A stretch of 64,000 nucleotides of DNA from Escherichia phage GEP001: the sequence record PV173775; one strand, given 5' to 3'. This document shows positions 4,694 to 64,000 of this stretch, in pieces (positions within the stretch are counted from its first letter, which is position 1; every line of letters starts with the position of its first letter). The position numbers were made by a program, and so were the translations under genes. The notes beneath the pieces are model-generated. The model made no database searches and was not told the origin of the DNA. It saw only the letters and a list, made by a program, of their open reading frames with translations.

Positions 4694-6751
4694 ATGGAAC
4701 TTATTACAGAATTATTTGACGGCGCTTCGGCGCCGGTTGTTAACTTAAATCCTAAGCATAAAATACCTCAAATTTTTGCTATTCAAGCCGGTGAAGAAAG
4801 CGTGCTTCCTGGATTTAGATTTTGTACATACACCTCTGGCGGTGATACAAATAAAAACGTTAAGCCAGGCGATAAAATGATGCATATCGTAATGATAGGT
4901 GTTAATGAGAAACTATCATTAGTTAAACTTAAAAACTTAGGTGGAAATCCAATTGGTGTCATTAATGCGGTTTTTGATACTGCTCTTCAGACAATGAAAC
5001 AGTACAAAATTGACGCATGCTTATTCCGCGTACTAAAGAGTAAAACAAATGGCGCAGCTCGACAAATTCAAGTTATTGCTGACCGTTTAGTACGTACTAA
5101 AGGAGCAGGTCGATATGTTCTTTTAAAAGAAATCTGGGATTACGATAAAAAGTACGCATATATTATGGTTTACCGTAAAAATGCTAATTTAGAAGACATT
5201 CCAGGTGTACCTCCTATTTCAACTGAGTTATTCACAAAAGTTGAATCAAAGGTTGGTGATGTTTATGTAGATGTTAAAACAGGTAATGCTGTTCCTAAAG
5301 CTGTTGCTGTTGCTGCTTCTATTGCTTTAGAAAATGATAAGCGCACGGATCAAGCTGTTATTCAGAAAACTAAAATTAGTCGTCGATTAGCAGCACAAGC
5401 TCAATACTCTACTGTCGATGCTTCACTTCAGGGTGATAGCTTCGCTGCTAAGAAATATCAAGAGTTTGAATCTAAAGTTCCGGTATATAAAGCAGAAGGA
5501 CCAATGAACTCCGGCGTTATTCAGGTTGGTTCAAACTTCAGCAAAGGAGCTATCGGTGGTATGAGAAGTGCTTCTCGTTTTAAATCTAATGATTATGAAC
5601 TAGAAAGCTTCCGAAATCATATTGCATTGGCTCATGCACGTTTACGTGATCCATCTATCAAGTTACAGAGCGATATAACATATCAAGGTTCTCAAGAATA
5701 TTTAAAGAATAAAGAATTTTTTGATTATAAAACTGATAAAATTTTAAGCGATCTTGCTGACATTAATATTTCTAATAGCTTTGATGTTATTAAGAAAATT
5801 GTCAATGATTTAGTTAAAGGTTCTAAAGCCACACCAGATGAAAAGGTAGCTATTGTTCAATTTGTCATGAATGGCATTTATAAATTGATTAATGAGTCTG
5901 CTTCTCAAGCGTATGAATATGCAAGTACTGAAGTACCCCCAAAAGGATTAACTCAAGCTGAGTCTGATGTAATTGAAGATTATTGCGCAGATTCATATGT
6001 TGAAATGAACTCGTTCCTTTTAGGTAAACCAGATTCTACTCGTGAAGAATATATGGAACGAGCTATTAAACACATCGAGACAATGGATTCTGCTTTTGCC
6101 AAAGGATCAGTTCTTCCTCCAGGAACTACGCTTTACCGTGGCCAAGAAGTTACCTTTAAAACTTTACGTCATAATATTGAAAATAAAATGTTCTATTTTA
6201 AGAACTTCGTATCCACATCGCTTAAACCAAATATCTTCGGTGAGTATGGTAAAAACTATATGGCCCTAGATGATTCCGGCACAGTATTTTCTGGTGAAGG
6301 AGAAGGTTCAGTTGATGCTGAAGATTTGATGCATATGGGCAGTCATTCTGCGTATGCCAATGAAGATGCTGAAACTAGCGTTGGTATGGTAATTAAAGGA
6401 GCTGAGCGAATCAAAGTTATCGTTCCAGGTCATTTATCAGGATTTCCATCAGAAGCTGAAGTTATTTTACCGCGTGGAATTTTGCTGAAGATTAATAAAG
6501 TGAGTACGTACATGATGAAAGAAACTGCTTATAACAAGTATCTAATCGAAGGCACAATCGTTCCTCCTTCTGAACAATTAGAAGAATCGGTATATGATGG
6601 TGACCATCTGATGGAAACTGGTGAAGTTCGTCCAATGACTGGATTTAACCAATTCCTTGTAGAAGAATCAAAAGAAGAGGAAAACGAAGTTTCTCAAATC
6701 TTGGCTTCTTTGGTTAACATCAACGGAATGTCTAAAAAGTTCAAGATGTAG
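4694..6751 (+). CDS. Alt-like ADP-ribosyltransferase, copy 2 (tandem paralog)
   Basis: 685 aa; N-terminal ~230 aa clearly homologous to copy 1 (MELITELFD..., GFRFCTYTSGGDTN, KMMHIV, QYKIDAC, RQIQVIADRL); middle region diverged; ART motifs retained (TLYRGQ, FVSTSL, SEAEVILPRG). Confidence 0.8.
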   Translation: MELITELFDGASAPVVNLNPKHKIPQIFAIQAGEESVLPGFRFCTYTSGGDTNKNVKPGDKMMHIVMIGVNEKLSLVKLKNLGGNPIGVINAVFDTALQTMKQYKIDACLFRVLKSKTNGAARQIQVIADRLVRTKGAGRYVLLKEIWDYDKKYAYIMVYRKNANLEDIPGVPPISTELFTKVESKVGDVYVDVKTGNAVPKAVAVAASIALENDKRTDQAVIQKTKISRRLAAQAQYSTVDASLQGDSFAAKKYQEFESKVPVYKAEGPMNSGVIQVGSNFSKGAIGGMRSASRFKSNDYELESFRNHIALAHARLRDPSIKLQSDITYQGSQEYLKNKEFFDYKTDKILSDLADINISNSFDVIKKIVNDLVKGSKATPDEKVAIVQFVMNGIYKLINESASQAYEYASTEVPPKGLTQAESDVIEDYCADSYVEMNSFLLGKPDSTREEYMERAIKHIETMDSAFAKGSVLPPGTTLYRGQEVTFKTLRHNIENKMFYFKNFVSTSLKPNIFGEYGKNYMALDDSGTVFSGEGEGSVDAEDLMHMGSHSAYANEDAETSVGMVIKGAERIKVIVPGHLSGFPSEAEVILPRGILLKINKVSTYMMKETAYNKYLIEGTIVPPSEQLEESVYDGDHLMETGEVRPMTGFNQFLVEESKEEENEVSQILASLVNINGMSKKFKM

Positions 6752-30348: not shown

Positions 30349-33489
<3,141 letters not shown>

Positions 33490-56214: not shown

Positions 56215-56287
56215 TGGGAATTAGCCAAGTTGGTAAGGCACTGGATTTTGATTCCAGGATGCAAAGGTTCGAGTCCTTTATTCCCAG
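56215..56287 (+). tRNA. tRNA-Gln (anticodon UUG)
   Basis: Cloverleaf read by hand: acceptor TGGGAAT/ATTCCCA, anticodon stem CTGGA/TCCAG with loop TTTTGAT, T-loop TTCGAGT; CCA not encoded. Confidence 0.85.
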
Positions 56288-56288
56288 C

Positions 56289-56375
56289 GCGAGAATGGTC
56301 AAATTGGTAAAGGCACAGCACTTAAAATGCTGCGGAATGATTTCCTTGTGGGTTCGAGTCCCACTTCTCGCACCA
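56289..56375 (+). tRNA. tRNA-Leu (anticodon UAA), type II
   Basis: Acceptor GCGAGAA/TTCTCGC, anticodon loop CTTAAAA, long variable arm, T-loop TTCGAGT, encoded CCA; starts 1 nt after tRNA-Gln. Confidence 0.85.
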
Positions 56376-56380
56376 AATTT

Positions 56381-56454
<74 letters not shown>

Positions 56455-56464
56455 ATTTAATTTA

Positions 56465-56538
56465 CTCCGTGTAGCTCAGTTTGGTAGAGCGTCTGCTTTG
56501 GGAGCAGAATGTCGTAGGTTCAAATCCTGCTACGGAGA
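56465..56538 (+). tRNA. tRNA-Pro (anticodon UGG)
   Basis: Acceptor CTCCGTG/TACGGAG, D arm GCTC...GAGC, anticodon loop TTTGGGA, T-loop TTCAAAT. Confidence 0.85.
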
Positions 56539-56540
56539 CT

Positions 56541-56630
56541 GGAGGCGTGGCAGAGTGGTTTAATGCACCGGTCTTGAAAACCGGCAGTCGCTCCGGCGAC
56601 TCATAGGTTCAAATCCTATCGCCTCCGCCA
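56541..56630 (+). tRNA. tRNA-Ser (anticodon UGA), type II
   Basis: Acceptor GGAGGCG/CGCCTCC, anticodon stem CCGGT/ACCGG with loop CTTGAAA, long variable arm, T-loop TTCAAAT, CCA. Confidence 0.85.
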
Positions 56631-56636
56631 GTTTTT

Positions 56637-56712
56637 GCTGATTTAGCTCAGTAGGTAGAGCACCTCACTTGTAATGAGGACGTCGGCGGTTCGATTCCGT
56701 CAATCAGCACCA
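56637..56712 (+). tRNA. tRNA-Thr (anticodon UGU)
   Basis: Acceptor GCTGATT/AATCAGC, anticodon stem CCTCA/TGAGG with loop CTTGTAA, T-loop TTCGATT, CCA. Confidence 0.85.
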
Positions 56713-56713
56713 A

Positions 56714-56788
56714 GGCCCTGTAGCTGGAAGGTTCAAGCAAGCGACTCATAATCGCCAGATGGTGGTTCAATTCCACCCAGGGCCACCA
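56714..56788 (+). tRNA. tRNA with anticodon CAU (T4 tRNA-Ile-type reading AUA after modification, or Met)
   Basis: Acceptor GGCCCTG/CAGGGCC, anticodon loop CTCATAA, T-loop TTCAATT, CCA; T4 tRNA-Ile carries a modified CAU-type anticodon. Confidence 0.75.
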
Positions 56789-56797
56789 AATTAATTT

Positions 56798-56884
56798 GGG
56801 GAGTTATCCCGTAGAGGTAGCGGTGTGGACTGTAAATTCATTGTCATTGCGACTCGGGTGGTTCGACTCCATCACTCCCCACCA
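56798..56884 (+). tRNA. tRNA-Tyr-like (anticodon GUA), type II, irregular D arm
   Basis: Acceptor GGGGAGT/ACTCCCC, anticodon stem GTGGA/TTCAT (two G-U pairs) with loop CTGTAAA, long variable arm, T arm GGTGG-TTCGACT-CCATC, CCA; D stem only 3 bp with 4 nt linker. Confidence 0.6.
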
Positions 56885-56888
56885 ATTT

Positions 56889-56963
56889 GGATGTGTAGCT
56901 CAATGGCAGAGCGATCGCCTGTTAAGCGATTGGTTATAGGTTCGAATCCTATCACGTCCGCCA
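56889..56963 (+). tRNA. tRNA-Asn (anticodon GUU)
   Basis: Acceptor GGATGTG/CACGTCC, D arm GCTC-AATGGCA-GAGC, anticodon stem ATCGC/GCGAT with loop CTGTTAA, T arm ATAGG-TTCGAAT-CCTAT, CCA. Confidence 0.8.
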
Positions 56964-56967
56964 AATC

Positions 56968-57043
56968 CGAGGCATAGCTCAGAAGGAAGAGCAAGGACCT
57001 TCTAAGTCCTAGGTCGTAGGTTCGATCCCTACTGCCTCGACCA
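56968..57043 (+). tRNA. tRNA-Arg (anticodon UCU)
   Basis: Acceptor CGAGGCA/TGCCTCG, D arm GCTC-AGAAGGAA-GAGC, anticodon stem AGGAC/GTCCT with loop CTTCTAA, T arm GTAGG-TTCGATC-CCTAC, CCA. Confidence 0.85.
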
Positions 57044-59137: not shown

Positions 59138-59746
59138 ATGAGAATGCAAAATGATTTCAATTCAATGTTTGAAGAGTTCCAAAGACAGGTTGATGTTCCA
59201 GACCAATTACTGAATGCTCTTAAACGTATGGCAGAAGGACGTAATTACTATTGGGGGTCTTCATATGAAACTGACGAAAGTCTTTCTGGAAGATTTTATA
59301 GAGGTAAAAAGTCTTTAATACGTCCTGGAATACTTATTAACAGTATTGAATCAATTCATTCATTGACATGTGATTTTGATGTTGAATTTACTGATTTCAT
59401 TTCCCCTGAATGGACGGTATGCTATTTAAACGACGATTATGACTATCTTGGCATTTATAGTTTAAGTGACGCGGGGTTTAGACGTAATTTACAAAAGTCA
59501 AATTTATTTTATATTGATACTACAGTAAAATTTCAGGGAAAGAAATATTTCTTTACTCTTATAGTTGACTCTGAAACAAAATATGAAAATAAGCGTATTC
59601 TTAGTAAAAAGAATATCTTAACTATTGTTGATGATCTTTTTGATAAATTCGTAGAAAATCCCAATTTTGAAAGCGATTTATTATTAGAAAAATTTGTTAA
59701 GGAATGTAGAGAATATGTCAAAGCCATCACTATACCTTCCAAGTAA
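59138..59746 (+). CDS. hypothetical protein, 202 aa
   Basis: ORF with SD GGAGTAAATAGGA; no motif recognised. Confidence 0.55.
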   Translation: MRMQNDFNSMFEEFQRQVDVPDQLLNALKRMAEGRNYYWGSSYETDESLSGRFYRGKKSLIRPGILINSIESIHSLTCDFDVEFTDFISPEWTVCYLNDDYDYLGIYSLSDAGFRRNLQKSNLFYIDTTVKFQGKKYFFTLIVDSETKYENKRILSKKNILTIVDDLFDKFVENPNFESDLLLEKFVKECREYVKAITIPSK

Positions 59747-60107
59747 ACCTGTGAAGTATGAACTAAAGCGCCAGATAATTTCTACCGATGTATTAATGGG
59801 TCCTGTGGTAGCTGTATCATTTGTGATTCTGCTAATTGCTGGAATGGTTATAGACGTTATGACTGATATTGAATCTGGTGTAATATTTGGAGCAACACTA
59901 ATTCTTCCAATGATAGTTCCATTTTTATTAGTACCTGTAAATTGGGTAGGATACTGGTATCAAGGAAGACATTATCGTAAACGCGTACGTGAATGGAAAG
60001 CTCAGTGTAAAAAGATTAAAAATGAACACCAGCTTAAACTAGATATGTATGAATTTAACGAAATTATGAAATTTGTTAAGGAATCACGATGCAAAAGCCA
60101 AAACTAA
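59715..60107 (+). CDS. membrane protein, ~130 aa, two TM helices
   Basis: ATG at 59715 (MSKPSLY) with SD AAGGAA inside the upstream gene; hydrophobic VVAVSFVILLIAGMVI and VIFGATLILPMIVPFLLV. Confidence 0.55.
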   Translation: MSKPSLYLPSKPVKYELKRQIISTDVLMGPVVAVSFVILLIAGMVIDVMTDIESGVIFGATLILPMIVPFLLVPVNWVGYWYQGRHYRKRVREWKAQCKKIKNEHQLKLDMYEFNEIMKFVKESRCKSQN

Positions 60108-60451
60108 ATAAAGTCAAATATTCGCTTCCTGAGTCATTTTTAATTTTTGCTGTGGCGTTGGCTGCAGCTCTTGCGGGTAGTCTTTTTGGATTGTTAATTG
60201 ACTGTCTTATTTTAAACATCGATGGCACAGTAAATATAATAGAAGTTTGGAGTGAACTTCGCTATACTAAAATTATTTCATTATTTTCATTCTTTTGTAT
60301 CATTCTATATTTTCATTATGATAATTTTAAAATAAATTGGCAAAGAAAAAAGGATTACAAAATACAATTAAAAGAATATAATAACCATATGTCTTATATT
60401 GAAAATGAATCAATGAAAGAGTTTGTGAGTGATTGTAGGAAAATCAGATGA
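60089..60451 (+). CDS. membrane protein, 120 aa
   Basis: Start with SD AAGGAA in upstream gene; hydrophobic LIFAVALAAALAGSLFGLLIDCLIL and IISLFSFFCIILYF. Confidence 0.55.
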   Translation: MQKPKLNKVKYSLPESFLIFAVALAAALAGSLFGLLIDCLILNIDGTVNIIEVWSELRYTKIISLFSFFCIILYFHYDNFKINWQRKKDYKIQLKEYNNHMSYIENESMKEFVSDCRKIR

Positions 60452-60756
60452 TTTTAAAAACTCGCTGGTATGATTTAGATGATGGGGATGATGGCATTCC
60501 AGTTGATAGAGTTGACTGGAATGGCTGTTCCGAAGATATGAAAAATTTGTTGATTAGGGAGTTTAGAATGGGATATCAACCAGTTAAGCCATCTACTGCA
60601 ACAGATGATAAATTTGTGTGTATTCATAATGGTCGCGCTAAATTAACGAACGCTGATTGGTTCACAGATAAAATTATGATTCTGTGGTATATTATTAGTC
60701 TTCCTGTGACATCATTCGTATTTTACTTTTTTATAAAAATCCAATGGACAGAATAG
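60448..60756 (+). CDS. hypothetical protein with C-terminal TM anchor, 102 aa
   Basis: Start overlaps previous stop (ATGA); C-terminal IMILWYIISLPVTSFVFYFFI. Confidence 0.5.
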   Translation: MILKTRWYDLDDGDDGIPVDRVDWNGCSEDMKNLLIREFRMGYQPVKPSTATDDKFVCIHNGRAKLTNADWFTDKIMILWYIISLPVTSFVFYFFIKIQWTE

Positions 60757-60915
60757 GAGATTGGATTCTTTTAACTATACTTGTTAATATTTTACAGCAG
60801 CAATATTATCTGGAATATGGTATACGTTCATTGAAATGCCATGGCGGCGACGCAGACAACAAAAGATTTTTGATGAAAAGAAATATACTCAAAATTTAAA
60901 TAACTTTATCGCTGA

Positions 60916-61371
60916 ATGCAGGAAATTAAAATGAAAACAATATCAGCTGGTATTATCTTTATGACAGAAGATAAAGATTTATTCATGGGACGGGTTACTG
61001 GTTCTCGTAAGCCTGGAATGATGGCACATCGCTGGGATATTCCAAAGGGCCGTGTAGAAAATTCTGATTTAAGCGCACTAGATGCAGCACGAAGAGAATG
61101 CTTAGAAGAGACTGGTTTTAGCAATTATAATCCAGACCTTCTAGAAGACCTAGGTGTATTTAAATATTCTAGTAATAAAGACTTACAGTTATTTTATTAC
61201 ACGATTCCAGTAGAGCATGAGATGTTTAGAAATTGCCATTGCGAGTCTTATTTTGAAAATAAAGATGGTGTTATGATTCCAGAGATGGATGCTTTTGCTC
61301 TTATTCCTCGCACTCAGTGGCAATATGTGATGGGTCCTTCACTTTACCGAATAATGAACAACCTCTTTTAA
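60916..61371 (+). CDS. nudE: Nudix hydrolase (T4 NudE / e.1)
   Basis: 151 aa; Nudix box G-x5-E-x7-REC-x-EE-x-G in GRVENSDLSALDAARRECLEETGF; alternative start at 60931 has the better SD. Confidence 0.85.
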   Translation: MQEIKMKTISAGIIFMTEDKDLFMGRVTGSRKPGMMAHRWDIPKGRVENSDLSALDAARRECLEETGFSNYNPDLLEDLGVFKYSSNKDLQLFYYTIPVEHEMFRNCHCESYFENKDGVMIPEMDAFALIPRTQWQYVMGPSLYRIMNNLF

Positions 61372-61902
<531 letters not shown>

Positions 61903-61906
61903 AGTT

Positions 61907-61935
61907 GTTTACTTTCTCCTAGAACTGTGATAGTA
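61907..61935 (+). promoter_or_regulatory. early promoter for the IPII-like gene
   Basis: AAGTTGTTTACT, 17 nt spacer, TG-n-TAGTAT. Confidence 0.55.
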
Positions 61936-61973
61936 TATTCATAGTTACTAATTAAAATATTTAAAGGAACCAT

Positions 61974-62291
61974 ATGAAAACGTTTAAAGAATTTATTGCA
62001 GAATCTGCCCAAGGACAACGTGTAGAAGGCGGTTATATCTGGATTGAACAAGTTGAGCCGCCAAGTCGCACTTCTACAGGTAAATGGAAAATCACTGTTG
62101 ATGGTCCTGGTGGTAAACGTAGGACTCTTAAAGAAATTAACGGGTACTATGAAGAAGCTCTTTCTGACGCGGGTACTTATATGATGCAAATCATGATTAA
62201 AAACCCAGAAAATCGTTTTGCGGCTAGAGTTTTCCGCCGTATTGGAAATAAGCTTTATGATGCATATTCTAAAAACTTCCCTAAAGAATAA
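61974..62291 (+). CDS. internal-protein-like capsid-targeted protein (IPII-like position), 105 aa
   Basis: N-terminus MKTFKEFIAE matches the capsid-targeting sequence shared with ipI; early promoter 61907-61935. Confidence 0.7.
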   Translation: MKTFKEFIAESAQGQRVEGGYIWIEQVEPPSRTSTGKWKITVDGPGGKRRTLKEINGYYEEALSDAGTYMMQIMIKNPENRFAARVFRRIGNKLYDAYSKNFPKE

Positions 62292-62307
62292 AAATTAAAG
62301 GATACAC

Positions 62308-62781
62308 ATGAAAACATATCAAGAATTTATTACTGAAGCAGCTATTAATTCTCAAATTATTGCTGAATCTTTTACTGATCTTTTGAAATTTAAAAAAGGA
62401 CAGAAAATCACTGCTGTATTGGATGATGGTACAGAAGTTGAGATGGATGTACAGGGATATAATTATGCAGTAGATGGAAAACTGTATAATAAATCTCATG
62501 CTAAATTTGATTCATTTGACGACTTTGTTAATACAGTTGAAGATGAAAAAACTCGTCGATCCATTGCAACTGGTGATGCTAAGGTTCTTATGGCACATGG
62601 TCATGAACGCATTCGCGCTAAACAGAATAAAATGGGTGAAGATAATTTTGCATTAGTTGGTTATCAATCTGGTAAGCAAACTTATGGCTATCAGCGTACT
62701 GCTACCATGTATAATAAAAATGGTAAAATCGCTTTCGTGAATAGTAAAGGTTCTATTCAGTACGTTAAATCGTTCAAATAA
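62308..62781 (+). CDS. internal-protein-like capsid-targeted protein (IPIII-like position), 157 aa
   Basis: N-terminus MKTYQEFITE (capsid-targeting-like); directly downstream of previous IP-like gene. Confidence 0.7.
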   Translation: MKTYQEFITEAAINSQIIAESFTDLLKFKKGQKITAVLDDGTEVEMDVQGYNYAVDGKLYNKSHAKFDSFDDFVNTVEDEKTRRSIATGDAKVLMAHGHERIRAKQNKMGEDNFALVGYQSGKQTYGYQRTATMYNKNGKIAFVNSKGSIQYVKSFK

Positions 62782-62921
62782 TATGGGAACAACCTGGACC
62801 TCATGATTCTGTGAGGGATTCCCGCCAACCTGTAATAAGGTCGAGCCCAAGTGCGGTAATGGGTAAATACAGAAATGGACAATTCATGCGCCACGGAATG
62901 GCCCAAATTTAGAGAGAAGAA

Positions 62922-63461
62922 ATGAGAACATTTTTAACTGGTCCTTATCTATCCCTGATGAATGCTTTTACACACCATTCTGATGCTAGAGTAGAAGAAA
63001 TTTGTAAAAACGAATATATCCCGCCATTTGAAGAATTACTTAAACAGTATTGCACACTTCGACTAGACGGTGGACGTCAATCCGGTAAATCAATTGCTGT
63101 GACTAACTTTGCTGCTAATTGGTTGTATGATGGCGGAACAGTTATTGTTCTTTCTAATACTTCAGCTTACGCTAAAATTTCTGCAAATAACATTAAAAAG
63201 GAATTTTCGCGTTATTCTAATGATGATATACGTTTTCGTTTATTTACTGATTCTGTGCGCAGTTTTATCGGTAATAAAGGAAGCAAGTTCAGAGGTTTAA
63301 AGCTTTCGCGAATTTTATATATAATTGATGAGCCTGTCAAATCTCCTGATATGGATAAGATTTATAGTGTCCATATTGACACTGTACACTGCTGCTGTAA
63401 TATTAAATGTTGCATTGGTGGTATTACTCGTCCACAGTTTTTCGTAATCGGAATGCAATGA
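62922..63461 (+). CDS. hypothetical protein with P-loop motif, 179 aa
   Basis: Walker A-like GGRQSGKS; Cys cluster near C-terminus (HCCCNIKCC); not similar to T4 DenV as recalled. Confidence 0.5.
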   Translation: MRTFLTGPYLSLMNAFTHHSDARVEEICKNEYIPPFEELLKQYCTLRLDGGRQSGKSIAVTNFAANWLYDGGTVIVLSNTSAYAKISANNIKKEFSRYSNDDIRFRLFTDSVRSFIGNKGSKFRGLKLSRILYIIDEPVKSPDMDKIYSVHIDTVHCCCNIKCCIGGITRPQFFVIGMQ

Positions 63462-63787
63462 TGACAGACACTCAGCTTTTCGAATATCTCTATTTTTCGC
63501 CAAAAACTATTAAAAATAAATTGGTGAATCATTTTGAAATTTTAGCAAAAAATAACATTTTGAGCGAATTTTATCCTAAGCAATACAAATTACAAAAAGG
63601 CGTATTCAAAGGATGCAGAGTTTTGTGCACGGCTCCTAATGCACGGCTAATGAATAAAATTCCATATTTTACTATGAAATTTATTGATGGGCCTTTTAAA
63701 GGACTAATCACACAGAGTTTAATGGCATATGATTCTGAGCCATTTTTAATTAAAGAACAATCTTGGATAAATTTATTTTCTAATTGA
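63458..63787 (+). CDS. hypothetical protein, ~109 aa
   Basis: ATG overlapping previous stop (track ORF starts 63407); no motif recognised. Confidence 0.45.
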
Positions 63788-63794
63788 GGTTTAT

Positions 63795-64000
63795 ATGAAA
63801 GCATATCAAATTCTTGAAGGCACACACAAAGGTACTATTTATTTTGAAGACGGTATTCAAGCACGAATTATTGTATCTAAAACCTTTAAAGAGGACTCTT
63901 TTGTAGACCCAGAAATTTTCTACGGTTTGCATGCCCGTGAAATTGAAATTGAAACACAACCTAAAGTTAAAATCGAAGGCGGTCAACACCTGAACGTTAA
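63795..64000 (+). CDS. hypothetical protein, 3'-truncated at window edge
   Basis: ATG at 63795 with SD GAGG; ORF open to end of window. Confidence 0.45.

Follow-up and report, generated by a model that had tools for sequence, protein, structure and literature searches.

The window analysed here comprises 64,000 nucleotides of Escherichia phage GEP001. It is a Tequatrovirus segment whose orientation is opposite to that of the T4 GenBank record, and over positions 61400-64000 its closest matches are phages G50 and REP4, at 98.8% identity. Near the end of the window, a 179-aa ORF encodes the Walker A-like motif GGRQSGKS and a Cys-rich C-terminus, HCCCNIKCC, exactly as described at 62922-63461 in an earlier note made from the sequence alone. 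The ORF is a real gene of PHROG 1488, with homologues in 1009 phage records by tblastn. The genes at this locus, from upstream to downstream, are as follows.

In the stretch starting at 60916, + strand: nudE, upstream of e
61408-61902, + strand: lysozyme gene e, with the translation of T4 lysozyme (endolysin / glycoside hydrolase in the annotation of relatives); left anchor of the variable cassette
61974-62291, + strand: internal-protein-like gene, 105 aa, with the N-terminus MKTFKEFIAE of the capsid-targeting type (phrog_3966, E = 2e-33)
62308-62781, + strand: internal virion protein gene, 157 aa, DUF7412 (PF24183, E = 6e-96; phrog_3155 "internal virion protein", E = 6e-102)
62922-63461, + strand: vs.8 orthologue, 179 aa, ATG start (PHROG 1488; 95% identity to T4 Vs.8)
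63458-63787, + strand: vs.7 orthologue, 109 aa (99% identity to T4 Vs.7; phrog_2049, E = 2e-52)
63796-64000 and past the window end, + strand: 5' part of vs.6, a GrcA-type autonomous glycyl-radical cofactor according to the annotation of relatives (97% identity to T4 Vs.6 over 68 aa)

Both internal-protein-type genes carry the capsid-targeting N-terminus MKTxxEFIxE. They are otherwise unlike T4 ipIII and ipII, as only this N-terminus of ~12 residues is shared. The 105-aa gene is not T4 ipIII, since its tblastn match to T4 IPII/IPIII is confined to the first 12-14 residues, and the 157-aa gene is not T4 ipII. An internal-protein gene of the DUF7412 type is also present in T2. A gap of 137 nt lies between the internal-protein gene ending at 62781 and vs.8, and the ATG of vs.7 overlaps the vs.8 stop by 4 nt (ATGA). 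Further upstream, 10 tRNA genes are clustered at 56215-57043 (Gln, Leu, Gly, Pro, Ser, Thr, Met/CAT, Tyr, Asn, and Arg); T4 has 8 tRNA genes, and those for Tyr and Asn appear to be extra in the window.

The phrog_1488 profile matches the 179-aa ORF with E = 5.4e-79, covering residues 3-179, and a tblastn search with T4 Vs.8 aligns at 95% identity over 219 columns at 62811-63458. The T4 record has the order e, ipIII, ipII, denV, vs.8, vs.7, vs.6, vs.5 ... regB. The order vs.8-vs.7-grcA-...-regB is found in G50 and Shigella phage A2, as in T4, and the position of vs.8 upstream of vs.7 and vs.6 is kept in T4-like genomes. By sequence and gene order, the 179-aa ORF is orthologous to vs.8, a gene of the T4 early region, and stands where that gene usually does, ahead of vs.7 and vs.6. 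The two ORFs that the earlier note saw behind it do follow, but it had listed them as unknown; the first is Vs.7 and the second is Vs.6. T4 Vs.8 (NP_049732, PHROG 1488) shares with the GEP001 gene its neighbours vs.7, vs.6 ... regB and the leader sequence. The two loci differ directly upstream of vs.8, where T4 has denV and GEP001 has an internal-protein gene. vs.8 is thus already known as a gene, though uncharacterised. We consider the explanation as a whole, namely a vs.8 orthologue, a cassette without denV, and a predicted ATPase, to be highly probable.

In one T2 record (PV648363, L048 2638-3173), vs.8 is present as two short CDSs and three tblastn pieces. This copy is either a pseudogene or the product of sequencing errors.

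The denV cassette

The earlier note placed denV directly after the internal-protein genes in T4, and the T4 record confirms this. T4 DenV (endonuclease V, a pyrimidine-dimer glycosylase) shares with the 179-aa ORF only its map position relative to the internal-protein genes. No ORF in the window has sequence similarity to DenV, in agreement with the note, and tblastn searches of the 64-kb window with three DenV variants, from T4, A2, and RB69, gave only short chance matches (best E = 0.09). Outside the window, the presence of denV in GEP001 was judged using G50 as a proxy. A tblastn search found no DenV in G50 1-70000 and 120001-167728 (118 kb, 70% of the genome), and G50 70001-120000 would match the window sequence by synteny, as inferred from G50 matches at both window ends.

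We compared the two places at which relatives carry denV.

61949-61959: empty site, at which relatives of the Shigella phage A2 type have a denV module of ~420 bp (alignment to L002)
62782-62784: junction holding denV in T4 and several other T4-like phages, consisting here of the internal-protein stop, 3 nt, and the conserved leader (T4 alignment)

In the A2-type alignment, window 59729-61949 corresponds to L002 1315-3550 and window 61959-64000 to L002 3974-6015. The A2 denV CDS is at L002 3563-3979, between e and the internal-protein genes. RB69 similarly has denV ahead of three small internal-protein-like genes. At the second site, homology between GEP001 and T4 resumes at GGGAACAACC, which in T4 follows the denV TAA without any gap. 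This resumption point, GGGAACAACCTGG at 62785, is 3 nt past the stop of the DUF7412 gene. Upstream of 62785, T4 has ipIII-ipII-denV where GEP001 has two different internal-protein genes. As in T4, the DenV C-termini directly abut the leader in five further loci from several T4-like genera (L010, L021, L025, L034, and L036). The T2 locus contains e, one internal-protein gene, the leader, and vs.8, without denV. By these alignments, the interval from e to the vs.8 leader is a variable cassette, which in GEP001 holds two non-T4 internal-protein genes and no denV module. denV itself, on the same comparisons, is an optional module that shifts position within the cassette, and the GEP001 lineage is without it.

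The earlier note proposed a locus replacement, which would mean that three unknown foreign genes, the P-loop ORF first, took the place of denV. denV is indeed missing, and the ORF is the first coding position after the internal-protein genes. However, the 179-aa ORF matches a known T4 gene of this region, vs.8, and all three genes are T4 vs.8, vs.7, and vs.6 at 95-99% identity, which lie downstream of denV in T4 itself. The T4 junction shows a clean presence or absence of denV plus different internal-protein genes, and we give the displacement of denV by foreign genes virtually no credence. The earlier interpretation is half right, in that denV is absent but nothing replaced it. It is also conceivable that GEP001 does have denV and that the gene has moved outside the 64-kb window, as its position varies between phages: after the internal-protein genes in T4 and before them in A2 and RB69. 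We regard such a move as distinctly unlikely. Both known denV positions are inside the window, and both are empty. G50 is the closest complete genome here (98.8% over 61400-64000), and it has no DenV in the 118 kb examined, the rest corresponding to window sequence by synteny. T2 likewise is without denV at this locus.

With this layout, the UV sensitivity of GEP001 should be close to that of T2 or of a denV mutant of T4. Historically, the v/denV gene was reached through the greater UV sensitivity of T2 compared with T4. Natural T-even phages without denV are therefore not new, and the variability of the denV cassette fits this classical difference. The comparison does away with a false reading of replacement, gives the ORF the name of a T4 gene, and shows denV as an optional part of the cassette whose position varies.

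A conserved RNA-like element ahead of vs.8

The leader between the internal-protein gene and vs.8 is more conserved than the Vs.8 protein, with 76-84% identity by blastn in RB69-, JS98-, and KP15-type phages. Its central 43 nt are 86-95% identical to rV5-like Vequintavirus phages, also by blastn. Covariance modelling and covariation point to the following features.

62785-62902, + strand: conserved structured RNA-like element, 118 nt
62785-62789 / 62819-62823: 5' stem-loop of the element, GGGAA / UUCCC, with an inner hairpin at 62799-62816
62824-62864: core, with closing stem P1, the hairpin ACCU-GUAAUA-AGGU at 62828-62841, a mini-hairpin, GGUAA at 62855-62859, and a bulged G
62890-62902: 3' hairpin of the element, GCCACGGAAUGGC

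Our covariance model, R1, has one match in the window, at 62815-62875 on the + strand, with 70.4 bits and E = 3e-19. R1 places the T4 copy at NC_000866 64,848-64,908 (L003 4849-4909, - strand), inside the annotated vs.8 CDS. We tested the structure on a MAFFT alignment of 32 distinct cores. Across these cores, the structure consists of a closing stem with a bulged purine, an ACCU-GUAANA-AGGU hairpin, a mini-hairpin of 2-3 bp, and a single-stranded GGUAA, and 87.5% of the proposed pairs are formed. In the closing stem, 11-50, 12-49, and 13-47 are paired in 100% of the cores, and each occurs as 3-5 pair types. Covariation scores 0.356, whereas shuffles give 0.104, with none of 500 as high, and slid partners give at most 0.089. 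The folded strand is the gene strand, because G-U pairs read from the opposite strand would become A-C. The 5' stem-loop and the 3' hairpin are additions of the T4-type copies; GGGAA/UUCCC becomes GGGAG/CUCCC in L034.

When folded alone, the leader did no better than its shuffles, with z values of 0.47 (+ strand) and -0.49 (- strand); the structure emerges only when sequences are compared. The consensus from RNAalifold on a mixed alignment of T4-like copies was weak, since 5' domains cannot be aligned from one subtype to another. A pseudoknot joining the GUAANA loop to UUACA further downstream was considered as well and is not supported; the best helix was 4.8 nt vs 4.5 nt in shuffled flanks, and the pairing is absent outside the T4-like phages.

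Pattern scans of IMG/VR found the core in all T4-like genera sampled and in rV5-like phages, as well as in ~46-kb Klebsiella/Escherichia phages, a 360-kb contig, and contigs of 75-100 kb. A match to the core in Aeromonas phage AhSzw-1 is weak, at 24 bits. Outside the T4-like phages, no linkage of the element to vs.8 or vs.7 was found. In most loci checked, the element is beside or inside a tRNA gene cluster on the same strand; three have no tRNA gene in the stretch examined. A host origin of the leader was rejected, as there is no match in 5,426 E. coli genomes, and exact-pattern scans of 596 Gb of bacterial genomes gave 33 hits, where we estimate that ~70 would be expected. These 33 matches are in unrelated taxa and at chance level. 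A cmscan search of Rfam 15 gave no match overlapping 62785-62921 at E <= 10, and none in an rV5-like copy. The exact core sequence is absent from the searchable literature, and the element may be among the unnamed csRNA candidates of PMC10690425.

We tentatively propose, with somewhat less belief than doubt, that 62785-62902 belongs to a so far undescribed family of structured phage RNAs, spread over T4-like, rV5-like, ~46-kb, jumbo, and Aeromonas phages and often found at tRNA clusters. The core of ~45 nt is nearly invariant. The element could be a stable small RNA, or a cis element to which a conserved host factor is recruited, perhaps so that poorly translated transcripts are protected or anti-terminated. 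If new, it would make T4 a tractable system for studying a widespread phage RNA common to unrelated virulent phages.

The element seems to resemble lambda nut boxB, the HK022 put RNAs, and the stable non-tRNA RNAs of the T4 and T5 tRNA regions. The likeness would lie in a small hairpin whose loop is purine-rich and GNRA-like (ACCU-GUAAUA-AGGU vs GCCCU-GAAAA-AGGGC), and in a place within untranslated, tRNA-rich transcription units of virulent phages. The element has a different and larger architecture and no boxA.

Several loci show further arrangements. In Klebsiella phage PKO111, an internal-protein gene lies between two copies of the element (L008 1008-1068 and 1530-1589), the second of which looks like a chimera of two subtypes. 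Two copies are in tandem in L025, at 5085-5143 and 5196-5256. The presence of two copies per locus, flanking an internal-protein gene in PKO111 where one seems chimeric, suggests that the element is a recombination boundary for internal-protein cassettes. In rV5-like phages (Escherichia phage nimi, L004 2429-2677; L037/L039/L044), the element is in an intergenic region of 250 nt. Read by eye, it is followed there by a strong sigma-70-like promoter, TTGACA-17-TAAAAT, and in some is preceded by a TGnTATACT promoter. With these promoters, the rV5-like element would form a small transcription unit of its own, ~560 nt ahead of the tRNA cluster.

A similar motif was seen in viral contigs of ~25-52 kb (L058, L068, L087, L088, L090, L100, L101, L117, and L140). 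It consists of a hairpin, GAG, CCUGUAANAAGG, 12 nt, GGUAA, and CUC, then an intrinsic terminator. We rejected the ~48-kb phage group with GAG-CCUGUAANAAGG-...-GGUAA as a member of the element family, as R1 found none at E <= 0.01; the GAG-CCUGUAANAAGG motif may be a related small RNA.

The Vs.8 protein

A profile search of 1.84 billion representative proteins gave 50 Vs.8-family matches, mostly of 130-185 aa (range 66-259) and all without a long partner domain. In a search of 5.8 billion proteins, the family forms 27 clusters. It appears to be small and confined to T4-like phages as far as named records show. We assessed conservation in a 19-member alignment with identity down to 40%. The Walker A motif GGRQSGKS is at residues 50-57 (nt 63069-63092), and D49-G-G-R-Q-S-G-K56 is invariant in 19/19 sequences, giving the motif LDGGRQSGK[ST]. 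R113 and R124-G125 are also invariant, the Arg-Gly being 12 residues ahead of the Walker B aspartate. Walker B, I134-E137 (nt 63321-63332), is part of the motif ILYIIDEP, in which L132, I134, I135, E137, and P138 are invariant and D136 is conserved in at least 90% of the sequences. The C-terminal strand FFVIGMQ is likewise invariant. Vs.8 thus has the Walker A GxxxxGK[ST] and the Walker B hhhhD plus Glu that define ASCE P-loop proteins. The AF2 model (pLDDT 80.8) shows a three-layer alpha/beta RecA-like fold, and the predicted fold is a single RecA-like domain.

By sequence, Vs.8 is weakly linked to the large terminase. The phrog_2 profile (terminase large subunit) matches Vs.8 with E = 1.3e-5, and Pfam PF03237 Terminase_6N scores 12.7 bits, under its gathering cut-off of 22. 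The window has its own normal large terminase.

30352-32184, - strand: gp17, 610-aa ORF (stop included)

In an hhalign alignment of Vs.8 with this gp17, at a probability of only 16%, GGRQSGKS pairs with LSRQLGKT and FRG..ILYIIDEP with VRG..MIYIDEC, so that the P-loop Arg and the Arg-Gly before Walker B are aligned in both proteins. The same alignment, at that 16% probability, pairs FRGLKLSRILYIIDEP of Vs.8 with a 14-residue segment of gp17. Searches of PADLOC, NCBIfam, and PDB sequences gave no significant family, and Foldseek against the PDB gave weak matches. We found no experimental work on Vs.8 in the searchable literature.

The core of Vs.8 resembles the ATPase subdomain of the large terminase and RecA1 of SF2 helicases. 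Unlike the N-terminal domain of T4 gp17 (PDB 2o0h), Vs.8 is ~180 aa and ends 42 residues after Walker B, so it has neither a lid subdomain nor a C-terminal nuclease domain. The terminase TTT coupling motif is not recognisable in Vs.8, and the Q motif is not conserved. SF2 helicases (DEAD-box, RIG-I-like, and Mfd) depend on a second RecA domain and on motifs Ia-VI; Vs.8 has neither. From its motifs and modelled fold, Vs.8 appears to be a stand-alone ASCE ATPase core of the terminase/helicase type, for which ATP hydrolysis would be expected. A protein called "hypothetical" since the annotation of T4 can thus be described as a probable terminase/helicase-like ATPase core with a probable arginine finger.

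We propose that Vs.8 would bind and hydrolyse ATP through K56, D136, and E137. It would most likely act as a homo-oligomer or with a partner, because it has a single RecA-like domain and a terminase-type putative arginine finger, R124. Vs.7 would be the best partner candidate, as the vs.7 start codon overlaps the vs.8 stop; a translational coupling of the two genes is read from this 4-nt overlap only. vs.8 is probably an accessory gene and not an essential one, as it is disrupted in the T2 record. Our best guess, because of the gene neighbourhood, is that Vs.8 is a nucleic-acid-dependent NTPase in host takeover or counter-defence. Within the block of genes that contains vs.8, tk.4/adfM counteracts DarTG2, and some of the internal proteins inhibit type IV restriction (10.1101/2025.11.20.689424).

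The start of Vs.8 also has to be considered, since the annotated T4 protein has 219 aa, starting from an upstream GTG, and the conserved protein has 179 aa. GEP001 has a counterpart of the T4 extension.

62811-62912, + strand: 33-codon GTG ORF, counterpart of the N-terminal extension of the T4 219-aa Vs.8; closed by TAG at 62910-62912 and not part of Vs.8

If the true protein were 219 aa, the GEP001 allele would be truncated at its N-terminus by a nonsense mutation followed by re-initiation. This would agree with the T4 vs.8 frame, which is open from a GTG 40 codons upstream (T4 CDS, NC_000866 64,253-64,912), and with the highly conserved nucleotide sequence of the extension. However, the extension frame is closed by the TAG, with a 9-nt gap, in GEP001 and G50, and is shifted by a 1-nt deletion in A2 and another 1-nt indel in RB69, which rules out the leader as coding sequence. 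Homologues of Vs.8 with as little as 37% identity begin at the downstream Met (MRTFL/MKxxL). RNA structure accounts for the conservation of the extension, the compensatory changes and the G-U pairs agreeing with the + strand only, and the RNA core is also found in phages without vs.8. We therefore consider a 219-aa Vs.8 highly improbable. The T4 vs.8 gene model is probably 40 codons too long, to judge from these alignments, with the excess overlapping the RNA element. Vs.8 might instead be a catalytically dead P-loop scaffold or a decaying gene without function, as the gene is disrupted in one T2 record and the family is small and without a characterised member. Against this, Walker A, Walker B, the catalytic Glu, and two Arg are invariant across several T4-like genera at 37-45% identity. 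Invariant motifs at such low overall identity indicate purifying selection on the active site, and we regard a dead or decaying Vs.8 as unlikely compared with an active ATPase.

The Cys-rich C-terminus pointed out in the earlier note is present in GEP001 (HCCCNIKCC, residues 156-164, nt 63387-63413), but it is not a feature of the family in the 19-member alignment. Only close relatives keep the CC pair. The cysteines are not conserved across the family, as they would be in a family of metal-binding proteins with a Cys cluster. Members at 40-58% identity have no Cys, or have 1-2 at non-equivalent positions, and the region of the run has a pLDDT below 50 in the AF2 model. By this comparison of sequences, the Cys run is specific to the lineage.
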